Positions 1 to 6,737 of a DNA stretch of 64,000 nucleotides are shown here, piece by piece. The stretch lies in the NCBI RefSeq assembly GCF_044324875.1, contig NZ_CP172185.1, one strand, 5' to 3'. The notes under the pieces are model-generated. The model was not told where the DNA came from and searched no databases. It saw nothing but the letters and a program-made list of their open reading frames with translations. Numbering within the stretch: the stretch's first letter is position 1; every line of letters starts with the position of its first letter. A program made the position numbers and the translations under genes. The stretch is from Escherichia coli (GTDB lineage: Bacteria; Pseudomonadota; Gammaproteobacteria; Enterobacterales; Enterobacteriaceae).

Positions 1-661
1 GGGTTACCAGCAGCAGCGCCAGGGGATAATGTGATGCCAGAACATCGGTTCCCTTCCGGACATCCTGTTCACCGCTGATAAAGAACAGTTCCTCTTCCGA
101 TACCTTTGCCACATCCGCCAGCATGAGCGCCCGGTGCAGACACTCACGCAGTTGCGATATGCTCTGCCACAGGTCAGTCCGGATGTTGGGGTCAAAGCTG
201 ACCCTGCCGCCAGCCTGCCGGATGTTCTCCATGGCCTGAAACGTGGCGCTGCGGCAGGGCTCTGCACTCAGGGCATTGGAGCAGGTATGCAGCCATTCAC
301 CGGCACGAAAGGGCGGTAAATCATCAGGGGTAAGGAAAAGGTCTGCCGAAGGGCGCACCATAAATGTGAAGGTTCGTTCACCACCCGGCACCAGCGACAC
401 CACCACTGTGGAAGTCCGGTACAGAGGGTCGGTATGCATATACGCCGTGTCCACACCCTCATCAGCCAGGGTTTTGCGCATAAAACGCCCGAAAGGGTCA
501 TCCCCCACACACCCGACAAACCCGCTCAGGCCCCCCAGTCGGGCCACGCCCACGGCAACATTGGCAGGCGCACCACCAGGGCACTGCAACAGCGTGCCCG
601 GCTTCTCCGGTAATAAATCCACCACGGCATCACCGAGACCCCATACTTTTACTGTACTCAT
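1..661 (-). CDS. Fructokinase, PfkB family (CscK/ScrK-like); N-terminal ~220 codons, 3' end lies beyond window start
   Basis: Start codon is complement of 659-661; hand translation gives MSTVKVWGLGDAVVDLLPEKPGTLLQCPGGAPANVAVGVARLGG..., matching enteric fructokinase N-terminus; frame stays open to position 2 (checked at both ends). Confidence 0.85.
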   Translation of the reverse strand, partial: MSTVKVWGLGDAVVDLLPEKPGTLLQCPGGAPANVAVGVARLGGLSGFVGCVGDDPFGRFMRKTLADEGVDTAYMHTDPLYRTSTVVVSLVPGGERTFTFMVRPSADLFLTPDDLPPFRAGEWLHTCSNALSAEPCRSATFQAMENIRQAGGRVSFDPNIRTDLWQSISQLRECLHRALMLADVAKVSEEELFFISGEQDVRKGTDVLASHYPLALLLVT

Positions 662-690
662 TCATACTCCATGATTTTCATCAGTCATAT

Positions 691-1267
691 TCAGCGGATG
701 ACAGACAGCTCAAACATCGCCATATCCGTGGTTCCGGCTGGAATTGGATACCAACCCGCATTCCGGAGCAGGGCAGCGAGGGCAGACACATCGCCGGTCA
801 GGGGATGCAGCAACCTCCCCTGATAATCAAATGCCGCCTCAAGACGTGAGCGGGAAAGATAAAAGCTGCCGGCATCCCCGTTCGGAACCACGACATTACG
901 CCCCTCCCATTTCCGGTCGCTCAGTATCCGCCAGCACCAGCCCTGCTCCCTGATGGTTTCCAGGGCGAATGTCAGGCGGAACAGGTCAGTCTGTACCGAC
1001 ACATCACCAGAGCAGGCCTGCCACAGATACTCCAGCCTGCTGCGGATATCTTTCGCCCCGCTTTCACTCTGCAGGGCTCTGATATGTGCGGGGAAAACGG
1101 TGCTGTTTCAGTGCTGTGCTCCGCCAGCGGTTTAGAAACAGGTTTTCCTGGATTTTTGACGCAATCCGGCCATCCCGGCGGGCCAGATGCAGGGCTACCA
1201 GCCCGCACCAGGTCAGATGTGCGGCTTTCCCTGATACCAGCTGCCCGCTGGCGATATTGTCACTCAT
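691..1267 (-). pseudogene. Unassigned ORF broken across three reading frames (possible frameshifted gene)
   Basis: Three overlapping minus-strand ORFs (1064-1267, 972-1208, 691-1002) in three frames tile a ~190-codon span between the EIIA-like gene and the fructokinase; no family recognised. Confidence 0.3.
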
Positions 1268-1272
1268 GGCGC

Positions 1273-1803
1273 TTACTGGCTGCTGATATCAAAAACCGGT
1301 GTTTCTCCGGCGATGACCGGGCCGGAGAACAGGGTTATCTCCTGGACACGGTCAGAGTCCGCCACAATCACCGGTGTCAGCGTGGACTGTGCTTTCTTCT
1401 GAAGTAACGCAAGGTCAAACCCGATGACGGGGTCACCGGTGCTGATCAGCTGGTCTTCCTGGGCAATACGCCGGAAACCCTCTCCCCTGAGGTCAACTGT
1501 GTTAATACCGAAGTGCACGAACAGTTCAGTGCCACTGTCGGTGCGGATGGAAAACGCGTGGTTTGTCTCCAGTATTTTACCGATAGTGCCGCTGACAGGA
1601 GCCACCAAGGTATCGCCGCCGGAAGGACGGATAGCAATACCATCCCCCACTATTTTCCCGGCAAACACAGCATCCGGAACCGTGTCCAGAGGGACAATTT
1701 CACCGGACAGCGGTGCCATCACGCGGGTGACTTCCGCCGGTTTCTCATTTTCACTTATCAGTTGTTTAATCCTGCCCAGTAATCCCATTGTGCTTTCCTT
1801 CAT
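1273..1803 (-). CDS. PTS EIIA(Glc)-family protein, Crr paralogue (likely start at MGLLGRIK, 1788)
   Basis: Translation contains APLSGEIVPLDTVPDAVFAGKIVGDGIAIRPSG...GTIGKILETNHAFSI...GTELFVHFGINTVDL.GEGF....STLTPV, collinear with E. coli Crr. Confidence 0.85.
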   Translation of the reverse strand: MKESTMGLLGRIKQLISENEKPAEVTRVMAPLSGEIVPLDTVPDAVFAGKIVGDGIAIRPSGGDTLVAPVSGTIGKILETNHAFSIRTDSGTELFVHFGINTVDLRGEGFRRIAQEDQLISTGDPVIGFDLALLQKKAQSTLTPVIVADSDRVQEITLFSGPVIAGETPVFDISSQ

Positions 1804-1851
1804 TACGGGTGAACCGAAAGTACTGCCGTCACCGACGGCAGTGGAATTATT

Positions 1852-3282
1852 TCAGGCCAGCGTCCACAGTGAGCCGTCCGTCAGCACAGCCTCGCCGTGA
1901 GCTGCATATAGCGACAACCGGCGGGTTCCGGGCTGCGGGTAAATACGGCTGGACAGGGTGGCATCGCCATCGTTAACGAACACTTCCACCGATGAACGGT
2001 CCAGGAAAACCCGTAGCGTCAGATATTCTGCGCCAGGCAGCGCGATACTGCGGTAACCGTCCAGCCCCTCATCCGGGTAGTGACGCCAAAGCACCAGCCG
2101 TCCTGCCTGGTTATCCACATACAGCCGGAGCCCGTCTCCCAGGTGGATGCCGTAATGCTCTGCCTGACTGTCGAGGGTATGCCACGTCAGCACCAGTTCC
2201 ACGGCCTGTGCGTCCTCAGCCAGCAACTGCGTGCCACTGAGCCTTACAGGGTGTAACGGCTGGCACGTCCCGCGAAGGGATTCGGCTTCGCGAACCGGAC
2301 GCTGACACAGACGACCATGGCGTTCAAAAAGTTCCCTCGGCAGGGTCAGACATCCGGCCCAGGCCTCACGCTTTGTAGGCATCGGGGAGTCCCACATATT
2401 CATCCAGGCCATGATGATGCGCCGTCCGTCCTCCGCGACCAGGGACTGCGGGGCATAAAAATCATGACCGTGATCCAGTTCTTCAAATGCCCCGCTCAGG
2501 GCAAAAGCGGCCCCCGGCTGCCAGTGACCCGGTAAAACTCCGCTCTGAAAGCGGTTGCGGAACCGGTATCCGCCGGGCGTCATCCCCTGCGGGGAGAACA
2601 TCAGCCAGTGATGGTCGCCACAGCGGAAAAAGTCCGGACATTCCCACATATAGCTTTCTCCGGCTGCCGACTGCGCCAGAACCCGTTCCTGGCGCCAGTC
2701 CCGCAGGGATGTGCCGCGATACAGCAGCACCTGACCGGTGTCAGAGGTATCCCGCGCGCCGATAACCATCCACCAGTATCCCCCTTCCCGCCAGACCTTC
2801 GGGTCACGGAAATGCATGATGCCTTCCGGTGGCGTCAGCACGCAGCCCTGTTTCTCAAAGTGAATGCCGTCACGGCTGGTTGCCAGACACTGGACTTCGC
2901 GGATGATGCTGTCATCCCCCCGATCCTCCAGACAGAGATGACCGGTGTAGATAAGCGACAGCACGCCGTTGTCGTCCACTGCGCTGCCGGAAAAACAGCC
3001 ATCCCGGTCATATTCATCACCGGGTGCCAGCGCAACCGGCTCATGCTGCCAGTGCAGCATGTCCGGACTGGTGGCATGTCCCCAGTGCATCGGCCCCTGA
3101 TGTTCACTTGCCGGATGGTGCTGAAAGAATGCGTGATAGCGACCGCTGAAATAAATAAGCCCGTTCGGATCATTCATCCATCCGGCAGGTGGAGCCAGAT
3201 GAAAAACCGGGTACCAGGTATCACCACGACGGGCGCGGAGTGTATCAAGTGCAACCTGTGCAGAGGCAAGACGCTGTTTCAT
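1852..3282 (-). CDS. rafD: Raffinose invertase / sucrose hydrolase, glycoside hydrolase family 32
   Basis: 476-aa ORF with GH32 N-terminal block WMNDPNGL and FSGSAVDD; last gene of a rafR-rafA-rafB cluster. Confidence 0.9.
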   Translation of the reverse strand: MKQRLASAQVALDTLRARRGDTWYPVFHLAPPAGWMNDPNGLIYFSGRYHAFFQHHPASEHQGPMHWGHATSPDMLHWQHEPVALAPGDEYDRDGCFSGSAVDDNGVLSLIYTGHLCLEDRGDDSIIREVQCLATSRDGIHFEKQGCVLTPPEGIMHFRDPKVWREGGYWWMVIGARDTSDTGQVLLYRGTSLRDWRQERVLAQSAAGESYMWECPDFFRCGDHHWLMFSPQGMTPGGYRFRNRFQSGVLPGHWQPGAAFALSGAFEELDHGHDFYAPQSLVAEDGRRIIMAWMNMWDSPMPTKREAWAGCLTLPRELFERHGRLCQRPVREAESLRGTCQPLHPVRLSGTQLLAEDAQAVELVLTWHTLDSQAEHYGIHLGDGLRLYVDNQAGRLVLWRHYPDEGLDGYRSIALPGAEYLTLRVFLDRSSVEVFVNDGDATLSSRIYPQPGTRRLSLYAAHGEAVLTDGSLWTLA

Positions 3283-4571
3283 AAGCGAACCTCCGTCTGT
3301 GCTGTAGCGGTTTCTGCTGACGGGGCAGCCGTTTTACGGGTACTGCTCAGGGTGAAAGCCGATAACACGGTGACCGCAAGGACAATACCGCCCAGAACCA
3401 GATAGGTGTTCTGGAACCCCATGCGGTCATACAGGTGACCTGCAAAGGTTGAGAGGAATATCGCCGCCAGTTGTTTGGAGAACTGAAAGCCAATCAGATA
3501 AATGGTGGCCGACAGCCGGGTATCAAACACGCCGGTGATATACTTGAACGCACCAACCAGCAGGAATGGGACTTCAAGGGCATGCAGCATTTTCAGGATC
3601 ACCACTTCAGTAGCCGTGGTGGCAAAGGCCGACCCTGTGATGCGGATGGTCATAATCAGACCCGCGACAAGCAGTGTGTTTTTGGCACCAATGCGGTTGA
3701 TTATCCAGGGGGAGCAGAACATGATGATGGCATTGCAAATCTCGCCAGCCGTGGTGGCAAAACCAAATGCCCGGATCCCCGCCTGCGGCGTGTCAAAAAA
3801 TGCACGGAAGAACGTGGCAAACTGCTGGTCAAACACGTCATAGACGCAGGCCACCCCAATCATGTAAAGCACGAACATCCACATCTGACGCATACGAAAC
3901 AGACTGAACACCATTCCGGCGGAAATCACGGGCGAGTTGGCACCCAGCGCATTCATGACCATCGCTGTCTGACTGGTTCCGGGACGCGCCAGCGCCACCA
4001 GAAGGACCAGCAGCAATGCGCAGCCGGACCCCATCCAGAATACCAGGGACGGATCCACGTTGAAAAGCAGCCCTGCCGTGGTGGCACACAGCGCCCAGCC
4101 CAGACAGCCGAACATCCGGGCCTTACCGTATTCAAATCCGCTGCTGCGGCTGACACGTTCAATATAGGCTTCGATGGCACCGGCTCCCGCAGAAAAAACG
4201 AAGCCGATAAAAATCCCGCCGCTCAGTGCTCCGGCCCAGATGTTGAACCGCAGCAGCGGCGCAAAAACGTACAGAAAGAACGGTGCAAACAGGACCAGCA
4301 GCAGGCTGATGATCCACATCAGGTGTTTTTTCAGGCCAAGACGGTCTGAGATGACCCCCAGCAGCGGCTGGAAGCTGATGGCAAACAGGGAGAGGCATGA
4401 AAAAACAATCCCGGTATCCGTTTTACTCAGCCCCACAATGTCTGACAGCCAGACGGGCAGAAACGGGAAACAGGTTGCCATGATGAAAAAGTAGAGAAAA
4501 AAGAACAGACCAAATATCCAGAAATCGGGGTTTTTATGAGTACTGACAGTATTCATTATTGTTATCCTCAC
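3279..4571 (-). CDS. rafB: Raffinose permease, LacY-type oligosaccharide:H+ symporter (MFS)
   Basis: 430-aa ORF; N-terminal NPDFWIFGLFFFLYFFIMATCFPFLPVWL and the rest are collinear with LacY; stop overlaps rafD start. Confidence 0.9.
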   Translation of the reverse strand: MRITIMNTVSTHKNPDFWIFGLFFFLYFFIMATCFPFLPVWLSDIVGLSKTDTGIVFSCLSLFAISFQPLLGVISDRLGLKKHLMWIISLLLVLFAPFFLYVFAPLLRFNIWAGALSGGIFIGFVFSAGAGAIEAYIERVSRSSGFEYGKARMFGCLGWALCATTAGLLFNVDPSLVFWMGSGCALLLVLLVALARPGTSQTAMVMNALGANSPVISAGMVFSLFRMRQMWMFVLYMIGVACVYDVFDQQFATFFRAFFDTPQAGIRAFGFATTAGEICNAIIMFCSPWIINRIGAKNTLLVAGLIMTIRITGSAFATTATEVVILKMLHALEVPFLLVGAFKYITGVFDTRLSATIYLIGFQFSKQLAAIFLSTFAGHLYDRMGFQNTYLVLGGIVLAVTVLSAFTLSSTRKTAAPSAETATAQTEVRL

Positions 4572-4610
4572 GGGACTGAGTGCAGGGAGCCGTGACCGGC
4601 TCCGGTCCTT

Positions 4611-6737
4611 TTATGCCAAACGTTCAAGGGCAATCAGCATGGCGCTTTCCGGATCCAGTACGGGAAGCTGAATACCGGCCTGCGCCAGCCATTCCCCACT
4701 GATGTCGGAGGTCTGGTTCATCCAGCCGGGCAGCCTGCGCATGGTATGCCCGCCTTCACCGACCAGCTGAATATCCGGATGGTCAACAACACGAAGCCGG
4801 TAACGGGCCTGTGGTGCCAGCCCCGGAAAACGTAGAGCACCCGGCAGGGTGTGATCCGGCATGGCAAGCTGGCTCACCAGGAAGAGCGCCTGCGACTGAT
4901 CCGGGCTGACCACCCCCTGCACCTGTGTCGCCGCATCCGGCATATCCACCCGCCATAGGGTGCCCGTGTGGATAAGCTGCCGCCATTCTTTGTAGAGCGA
5001 GGCATAGCGGCGGTAACCGGCGGATTCCTCTTCTCCGGCCGTTACCGGATCCAGCTCCAGTCCCATATGACCGAACAGGGCCGTCAGACCGCGAAAGGCA
5101 ATGCTGTGCTGCCGGAAGGTGGCATGGCAGCGATGATGACCGATGTGTGCCCCCATAACCTCCGGCGGGAAAAAGTAACTCATGCCACGCTGTATGGTGC
5201 AGCGCTCCAGGGCGTCATTGTTGTCAGAAGCCCAGAAGCGGTGCGTGCGGGTCAGAACCTCAAAGTCGATACGTCCACCGCCGGAAGCGCAGGACTCAAA
5301 CTCAACACGGGGAAAACGTTCGCGCAGGAGATCCAGCAGCCGGTAAAACTGACGGGTCTGCGCGTCCGCCGCCGCCCGACCTTCATGCCCGGCCTGGACC
5401 AGCTCGCGGTTCATGTCCCATTTCACATAGTCAACTGGGTGTTCGCCCAGCAGCCATAAACAGCGTTCATAAATGTAAGCAAAGGCCTCAGGAATGTTCA
5501 GGTTGAGAACATACTGATGTCTCCCGGTTGGTTGTGTGTACCCCGGCATTGACAGTACCCAGTCAGGATGGCGGCGAAAGAGGTCAGAGTCCGGGTTAAT
5601 CATTTCCGGTTCCACCCAGATACCGAACTCCATGCCGAGTGATTTCACATGGTTAATCACCGGCATCAGTCCGTCCGGATACTTCTGTTCATCCAGATAC
5701 CAGTCGCCCAGAGCCGCATGGTCATCATTGCGCCCCTTAAACCAGCCGTCGTCGATAATGAAACGTTCAACGCCAAGCGCTGCCGCACGTCCGGCCATCT
5801 GCATGATGTAGTTCGGGTCGTGGTCAAAATAAATACCTTCCCAGGTATTGAGGTGCACCGGACGGGGTTTCTGCTCAGGAAAACGGATGATTTCATCGCG
5901 CAGAAAACGGTGGTACTGCTGACTCATACCATTGAGCCCCTCCGGGGAATAGCTGGCGTACAGCCACGGCGTGTACACGGTCTCATCCTTCTTCAGGGCT
6001 TTTTCTCCGGGCATCCACAGTGCTTCCGCCTGGAGGTAACGCCGTCCGTCAGTTTTGACCTCACATTTCATGCGATGGTTGCCACTCCAGCCCAGATGTA
6101 CGGCCCACACCTCGCCCTGCTGTTCTGAGAAACCGGGGGCACCGGCAATCAGTGCCGGAAAATGCTCATGGGACGTGCGGCCCCGGCGGTTCTCCAGCAC
6201 AAAACCGTCATGTGTGAGACGGACCCTGTGCGGCTGAAACTCACGAGTCCAGCGTCCGTGGAAGGCCATGACTTCCTCTGCCCTTTCAGCCACAGGGAGC
6301 GTGATGGCGAAGCGGTTCACCTGCCAGTCCCCTTCACGGAGGTTCGTCAGGGCATGACGCATCTTCAGCACACCGGACGATGTCAGCACCAGTTCACTGA
6401 CCATGCGCAGACCCGCCACTGCATCCTCACTGGTCAGGGTGAGTGATTCTCCGGCCTGTACCACGCTGATGGTACGGAACACAGGGGACGCATCCAGCCC
6501 GTTGCGGTGTCCCTCCAGCCCCGGCGAGCCAAAAAGTCCCGCGCCGTTTTCGGCCATCAGCGTCAGTGGGGTGTCGGTATCCAGACGACCATTCGCAACC
6601 GGCCTTTCCAGGCTGATACAGTCATCCGGTGAAAAGTGTTTCAGGGTGGATCCCCACCAGACAATCTCTGCATACGGGTGGGTTTTAATAATCAGGTCTG
6701 AGTGGGGACTGGTCAGCCTGCGGTACATCGGTTCCAT
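4611..6737 (-). CDS. rafA: Alpha-galactosidase, glycoside hydrolase family 36
   Basis: 708-aa ORF directly downstream of the LacI-type regulator and operators; length and position match RafA. Confidence 0.9.
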   Translation of the reverse strand: MEPMYRRLTSPHSDLIIKTHPYAEIVWWGSTLKHFSPDDCISLERPVANGRLDTDTPLTLMAENGAGLFGSPGLEGHRNGLDASPVFRTISVVQAGESLTLTSEDAVAGLRMVSELVLTSSGVLKMRHALTNLREGDWQVNRFAITLPVAERAEEVMAFHGRWTREFQPHRVRLTHDGFVLENRRGRTSHEHFPALIAGAPGFSEQQGEVWAVHLGWSGNHRMKCEVKTDGRRYLQAEALWMPGEKALKKDETVYTPWLYASYSPEGLNGMSQQYHRFLRDEIIRFPEQKPRPVHLNTWEGIYFDHDPNYIMQMAGRAAALGVERFIIDDGWFKGRNDDHAALGDWYLDEQKYPDGLMPVINHVKSLGMEFGIWVEPEMINPDSDLFRRHPDWVLSMPGYTQPTGRHQYVLNLNIPEAFAYIYERCLWLLGEHPVDYVKWDMNRELVQAGHEGRAAADAQTRQFYRLLDLLRERFPRVEFESCASGGGRIDFEVLTRTHRFWASDNNDALERCTIQRGMSYFFPPEVMGAHIGHHRCHATFRQHSIAFRGLTALFGHMGLELDPVTAGEEESAGYRRYASLYKEWRQLIHTGTLWRVDMPDAATQVQGVVSPDQSQALFLVSQLAMPDHTLPGALRFPGLAPQARYRLRVVDHPDIQLVGEGGHTMRRLPGWMNQTSDISGEWLAQAGIQLPVLDPESAMLIALERLA

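Follow-up and report, generated by a model that had tools for sequence, protein, structure and literature searches.

At the left end of the stretch analysed here (64,000 nt of Escherichia coli DNA, hereafter the window), where every gene lies on the minus strand, some 190 codons between a gene for an EIIA paralogue and one for a fructokinase are covered only by overlapping open reading frames (ORFs). A sequence-only reading had taken this pattern as the remnant of a formerly intact gene of the sugar cluster, broken by one or two frameshifts, and had advised a check of homopolymer runs near 1002-1064 for sequencing errors. This raises the questions of which gene was broken, how it was broken, and whether it ever belonged to the sugar pathway in which it is embedded. 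The window is chromosomal and not part of a plasmid, and its left end contains the following features:

1..661, minus strand: PfkB-family fructokinase-type kinase, ATG at 661, truncated by the window edge, with a GGAG Shine-Dalgarno sequence upstream
691-1267, minus strand: the stretch in question, interpreted below as a DUF2913 relic, between the Crr-like EIIA gene and the PfkB kinase
691..1002, minus strand: ORF of 103 aa, GTG start
972..1208, minus strand: ORF of 78 aa, GTG start
1064..1267, minus strand: ORF of 67 aa, ATG start
1273..1803, minus strand: EIIA-Glc (Crr)-like paralogue (PF00358); the RefSeq start corresponds to 1788
1852-3282, minus strand: GH32 invertase (rafD)

Both flanking genes are thus those that had been named. 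The RefSeq neighbours of the stretch are a LacI-type regulator, an alpha-galactosidase, an MFS permease, the GH32 invertase, the Crr-like EIIA, the PfkB kinase and a carbohydrate porin, in the order rafR-rafA-rafB-rafD-crr-like-(DUF2913 relic)-kinase-porin. The raffinose operon consists of rafABD, plus the porin gene rafY (PMC12987596), and the host cluster is a plasmid-type raf cluster with a RafY-type porin (pRSD2-type). The three minus-strand ORFs do lie in three different frames, their tops at 1002, 1208 and 1267 being 0, 2 and 1 modulo 3. On the other hand, the plus strand of the same stretch also contains ORFs of 60-107 aa (744..953, 953..1135 and 1084..1407), and with ORFs of similar size on the opposite strand the pattern alone is not convincing; proof of a former gene would have to come from homology rather than from ORF geometry.

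Such homology was found in two of the three frames, both matching DUF2913 (PF11140 / phrog_15786), a family of unknown function, which rules out a non-coding spacer. The two matching fragments are:

1064..1267, minus strand: N-terminal fragment, frame A, ATG at 1267, premature TGA at 1066-1064 after 67 codons; homologous part about 1234-1088, ending with the conserved ...ALKQHRFPR
691..1107, minus strand: C-terminal fragment, frame C, open from 1107 to the TGA at 693-691; homologous part 1050-703, comprising helices 4-5 and the C-terminal alpha/beta domain

In a PF11140 search, frame A matched positions 9-53 (21 bits) and frame C positions 66-155 (12.2 bits), each half alone remaining under the gathering cut-off of 23 bits, whereas the joined translation exceeded it (28.4 bits, E = 1.7e-6, positions 9-155 of 207). 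With a family profile of 203 positions built from 25 close intact relatives, and with filters off, frame A covered positions 4-55 (75 bits) and frame C positions 73-193 (118 bits), positions 56-72 being the only unmatched segment between the colinear pieces; the joined sequence scored 196 bits against this profile and matched phrog_15786 at 1e-45. The translated search that had been proposed for the locus, performed as tblastn with four intact relatives, returned the same two colinear pieces in two frames, with E values of 1e-44 to 1e-46 in three of them and identities of 57-63% to residues 1-56 for frame A and 43-51% to residues 73-197 for frame C. The claim of a formerly intact gene of about 190-200 codons is therefore borne out.

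Intact DUF2913 proteins have about 200 residues and, in a structural model, an N-terminal five-helix domain followed by a C-terminal alpha/beta domain; a search with the predicted fold (pLDDT 85.5) yielded no convincing solved relative, and PADLOC held no defence model corresponding to DUF2913. The joined sequence is 42-49% identical to intact members. When 60 diverse full-length representatives (about 29% identical to one another on average) were aligned, 20 columns proved at least 80% conserved, and the joined sequence agrees with 17 of them. Compared with members such as WP_004152389.1 from IncFII(K) Klebsiella plasmids, the relic has retained the order of segments and the native N-terminus (M-S-D..., against M-T-D... 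in P0007). In contrast, intact members are encoded by a single ORF of about 185-225 codons, whereas the relic is spread over two frames with a stop after 67 codons; and on an IncFII(K) plasmid DUF2913 lies beside repA and a ProQ/FinO-family gene, whereas the relic lies inside a sugar-utilisation cluster.

The damage itself can be assigned to a short interval:

1049-1088, minus strand: lesion zone, about 40 nt instead of about 21 residues (63 nt)

Frame A is correct through ...A-L-K-Q-H-R-F-P-R to 1088, and frame C homology begins at 1047-1050 (I-R-S-R-L-E-Y-L-W), while the approximately 40 nt between the pieces carry no family signal in either frame. When chimeras with a frame switch at every codon were scored against the profile, a flat plateau of 192.7-196.2 bits was obtained for switches from 1088 to 1043, peaking just after RFPR (196.2/195.9) and falling steadily outside; within 1049-1088 the score stayed at 194-196 bits. 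The frame change thus occurs at 1049-1088, and homopolymer miscounting near 1002-1064 does not account for it. Among the 60 aligned representatives, the segment from the Q-E-N-L-F-L motif to just past Y-L-W has 58-61 residues in 56 and exactly 60 in 51, against 52 residues at the best join in the relic. From 63 nt expected and 40 nt present, a net loss of 23 nt follows, equivalent to about 8 residues of predicted helix 3 (model residues 51-71) plus a +1 frame change, which leads to the TGA at 1066-1064. The nearly invariant helix 3 motif P-D-I-E-W-L-L-K-Q-G, of which D56, W59, L61, Q63 and G64 are common to all 25 close relatives, has no counterpart in either frame of the relic. The missing motif and the short segment argue for a dead member of DUF2913 and not for a non-member. 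A nucleotide alignment with one relative tentatively placed gaps of 11 and 12 nt; the 23 nt may have gone in one event or as 11 + 12 nt. The TGA may be a mutated Trp codon.

We consider it very likely that 691-1267 on the minus strand is a single inactivated DUF2913 gene, with one net 23-nt loss in 1049-1088, persisting as a passive relic of plasmid type. The loss removed about 8 residues in the helix 3 codons and shifted the frame by +1; translation from the native ATG at 1267 ends at 1066-1064, leaving the remaining 60% of the gene (1050-703) in another frame and deprived of its native start, and a working DUF2913 protein is probably no longer made. The relic is probably co-transcribed between the crr-like gene and the kinase and carried passively. 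Scans of the relic stretch for promoter-like sites, Rfam families and unusual RNA structure were all negative, and because the kinase has its own GGAG ribosome-binding site, its expression does not require translation of the relic.

The assignment to the sugar pathway fared less well than that of a broken gene, as DUF2913 is a backbone gene of plasmids and mobile elements. By tblastn, the family was found in 3249 plasmid records, 2276 of them conjugative, mostly from Klebsiella and Salmonella. On the IncFII(K) Klebsiella plasmid p12812 the gene comes shortly after repA and shares an overlap with the end of a ProQ/FinO-family gene. An Erwinia plasmid has it behind the replication genes, Salmonella has it in an island next to a type VI secretion cluster, and in Pantoea it is a solitary gene amid accessory plasmid genes. 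A raf-type cluster of Citrobacter braakii (alpha-galactosidase, LacY-type permease, porin, GH32, then EIIA, with an IS66 gene directly after), the one such cluster examined, shares the GH32-EIIA pair with the E. coli cluster and contains no DUF2913 sequence by tblastn at E<=10. A gene of conjugative-plasmid backbones and a DUF2913-free raf cluster in Citrobacter together suggest a hitch-hiking relic rather than a sugar gene, probably a trapped piece of plasmid backbone from outside the sugar pathway.

There are observations on the other side. The stop codon of the crr-like gene is only 5 nt before the DUF2913 ATG and the kinase begins 29 nt downstream of the relic; the G+C content of the relic (55-58%) is that of the remainder of the raf cluster, the local DNA being at about 57%. 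In addition, a Salmonella Saintpaul plasmid copy with the same split shows 37 differences over 5.4 kb (window 1-5397 vs L002 3402-8798), which are concentrated where the crr-like gene ends and DUF2913 begins, a hint that the adjacency predates the recent spread. A gene that truly served the sugar pathway before its decay, for example by regulating or assisting the EIIA paralogue or the kinase, is nonetheless unlikely, as the intact DUF2913 genes in the contexts examined occur in plasmid replication or maintenance regions, genomic islands and phage-derived families but in no sugar operon, and are absent from the Citrobacter cluster with the same GH32-EIIA pair. The 5-nt spacing and the cluster-like G+C content leave a long shared history with the sugar genes, or even an earlier function among them, as an alternative of low probability.

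Several side observations concern this neighbourhood. The Saintpaul differences are uneven, with 26 in 1-1800 (kinase, relic and crr-like gene) and 11 in 1801-5397 (rafD, rafB and rafA). Five of them lie in the N-terminal part of the relic (1213-1259). Relaxed constraint could explain this distribution, as could a patch acquired by recombination from a more diverged allele. On p12812 (L008 2077-3235) the intact DUF2913 gene overlaps the ProQ/FinO-family 3' end by 17 nt, and the same pair was listed in many of the plasmid tblastn matches, which suggests a translationally coupled module and a possible lead to the function of the family. The Crr-like protein shares 58-66% identity with housekeeping Crr proteins and with other EIIA paralogues, so that its next-best relatives beyond the raf island reach only that level; the EIIA of the differently organised C. 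braakii cluster (L013/L014 6001-6513) is 63% identical and occupies the same place directly after GH32. Raf-type clusters thus seem to include an extra Crr as a rule, despite the MFS/LacY-type (non-PTS) permease. A perfect GC-rich hairpin, ACTGCCGTCGGTGACGGCAGT, at 1822-1842, in the 48 nt that separate the rafD stop codon from the start of the crr-like gene, was scored as terminator-like on both strands and could part rafRABD transcription from that of the crr-kinase-porin genes, or attenuate read-through.

That the locus is more than passive junk, either because the C-terminal domain or both halves are still made and acting or because IS3-family elements insert preferentially in the lesion zone, is improbable. 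As to the halves, RefSeq annotates both as ordinary CDS of a "DUF2913 family protein" with no pseudogene flag (N-half, WP_072740748.1 / WP_001313182.1; C-half, WP_001313183.1, 691-1002, from the internal GTG), most of the conserved family positions are kept, and the C-terminal ORF corresponds to a separate alpha/beta domain in the model. Compared with the Saintpaul copy, synonymous and non-synonymous differences stand at 3:1 in the C-terminal piece and 1:4 in the N-terminal piece, counts too small for selection inference; the former ratio could reflect residual constraint, and the latter points the opposite way. Functional halves, whether as separate polypeptides (67 aa + about 103-138 aa) or as the product of a programmed +1 frameshift, appear less likely still. 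Even a perfect +1 shift would give a product about 8 residues short in a segment of nearly fixed length, devoid of D-I-E-W-L-L-K-Q-G, and frame C has no start codon ahead of the GTG at 1002, with only a weak GGTGAT upstream. In prfB-type genes the programmed shift is conserved in diverged homologues and yields a full-length product, neither of which holds for the relic: roughly 120 close and 150 distant relatives listed were all single ORFs or plain fragments, with no conserved frameshift. Reading by eye, no GGAGG-like element was seen just before the TGA at 1066-1064.

Of the one or two frameshifts that had been proposed, one stands. The ORF 972..1208 gave no Pfam match and no tblastn match to the four intact relatives, and with filters off it failed to match the profile even at E<=100. 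With two colinear homologous pieces and an empty third frame, the stretch corresponds to one gene with one frame change, and 972..1208 is a chance ORF. A gene with two frameshifts, of which all three ORFs would be pieces, would agree with their end-to-end overlap along the stretch but is very improbable, as profile positions 4-55 and 73-193 are already covered by the other two ORFs. The inactivated single DUF2913 gene resembles ordinary split-gene pseudogenes, in which adjacent same-strand ORFs likewise match consecutive parts of a profile; here the split is fixed in a recently spread island, and the sole oddity is that the annotation names both halves as proteins.

The distribution of the split was examined in 5,426 complete E. 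coli genomes. By megablast, 600-1400 was present at >=99% identity in 248 records, most of them chromosomal and 9 on plasmids, and it was also found in 9 PLSDB plasmid records, two of them from Salmonella. For positions 1000-1140, all 244 matching E. coli records fell in the >=99% identity band, the whole stretch was present in 225 records from 222 complete genomes, and the 37 full-length records listed, sampled evenly down the ranking, were all 100% identical; a Salmonella plasmid copy at 98.4% identity has the same split. A miscounted homopolymer in an intact gene, for which a G4A4 run beside the junction (1089-1096, plus strand) and other frame patterns in some error-rich assemblies (P0002, P0034) might speak, is refuted by the identical junction in 222 independently finished genomes and the Salmonella copy, the run being correctly read in frame A as the conserved R-F-P-R and the missing nucleotides numbering 23 and not 1, so that its probability is close to nil. 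P0002 and P0034, considered as apparent read-through variants, were rejected, both sequences being full of frame errors.

The lesion was fixed before the raf island spread, being present in every copy found on E. coli chromosomes and plasmids and on Salmonella plasmids. No intact relative exceeded 49% identity among 5.8 billion clustered proteins, and nothing closer than 49% appeared in the best 150 of 527 family matches from a library of 1.84 billion cluster representatives. Outside the lesion the relic is a good family member by its conserved positions, from which it follows that the inactivation is young relative to the divergence of the family.

Separately, in 19 of the 244 E. coli records the raf cluster breaks off precisely at window 1077, where it is joined to the end of an IS3-family element (...GGATTCCCGGGGCGGTTCA; junction segments L006 6947-7001 and L007 6947-7001); a group II intron in turn splits this element. 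Where the island is full-length, this IS end is found past the porin gene (L011 22750). The 1077 junction looks like an IS-anchored adjacent deletion of the C-terminal half of DUF2913, the kinase and the porin. That it falls within the 40-nt lesion zone is either chance (roughly 1 in 100) or a sign of a hot spot; if the latter, an earlier insertion with imprecise excision could have left the 23-nt loss as its scar, and such a scar would date the assembly of the raf island from a plasmid backbone.

Regarding the island as a whole (window 8000-33000), the raf cluster of E. coli strain 135, the closest matching chromosome, is bounded by an IS3-family element, and the island also carries a tyrosine integrase, a DUF3987 protein and inovirus Gp2-like genes, beside phoH-efeUOB-putP-putA. 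The cluster is 100% identical on the poultry E. coli plasmid pLH50-c-A. The gene rafB (MFS raffinose permease), intact in the window, is annotated as frameshifted in SUISSEKPC3NDM5 and strain 135 (L006 9203-10481 and L011 13947-15225, corresponding to window 3279-4571), and the raf island seems to be decaying in several lineages. The 64-kb window contains no tRNA gene, and the following RNAs scored above the Rfam gathering score:

20716-20852: RtT RNA
22224-22417: Ysr251 antisense sRNA
45705-45783: naRNA4
56466-56888: cspA thermoregulator

The relic is an ordinary pseudogene of a known family, whose name is already attached to both halves in RefSeq, as two proteins. Each pair of "DUF2913 family protein" CDS, annotated in over 200 E. 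coli genomes, represents a single pseudogene in two halves and should be left out of protein counts when the raf island is treated in pangenome or association work. The island is under discussion for adapting E. coli to life in the chicken gut. Although the overall significance is small, the relic may mark the seam between a rafRABD-crr module and a kinase-porin module, and a plasmid-backbone gene between these parts is a small clue to the assembly of the island on a plasmid.
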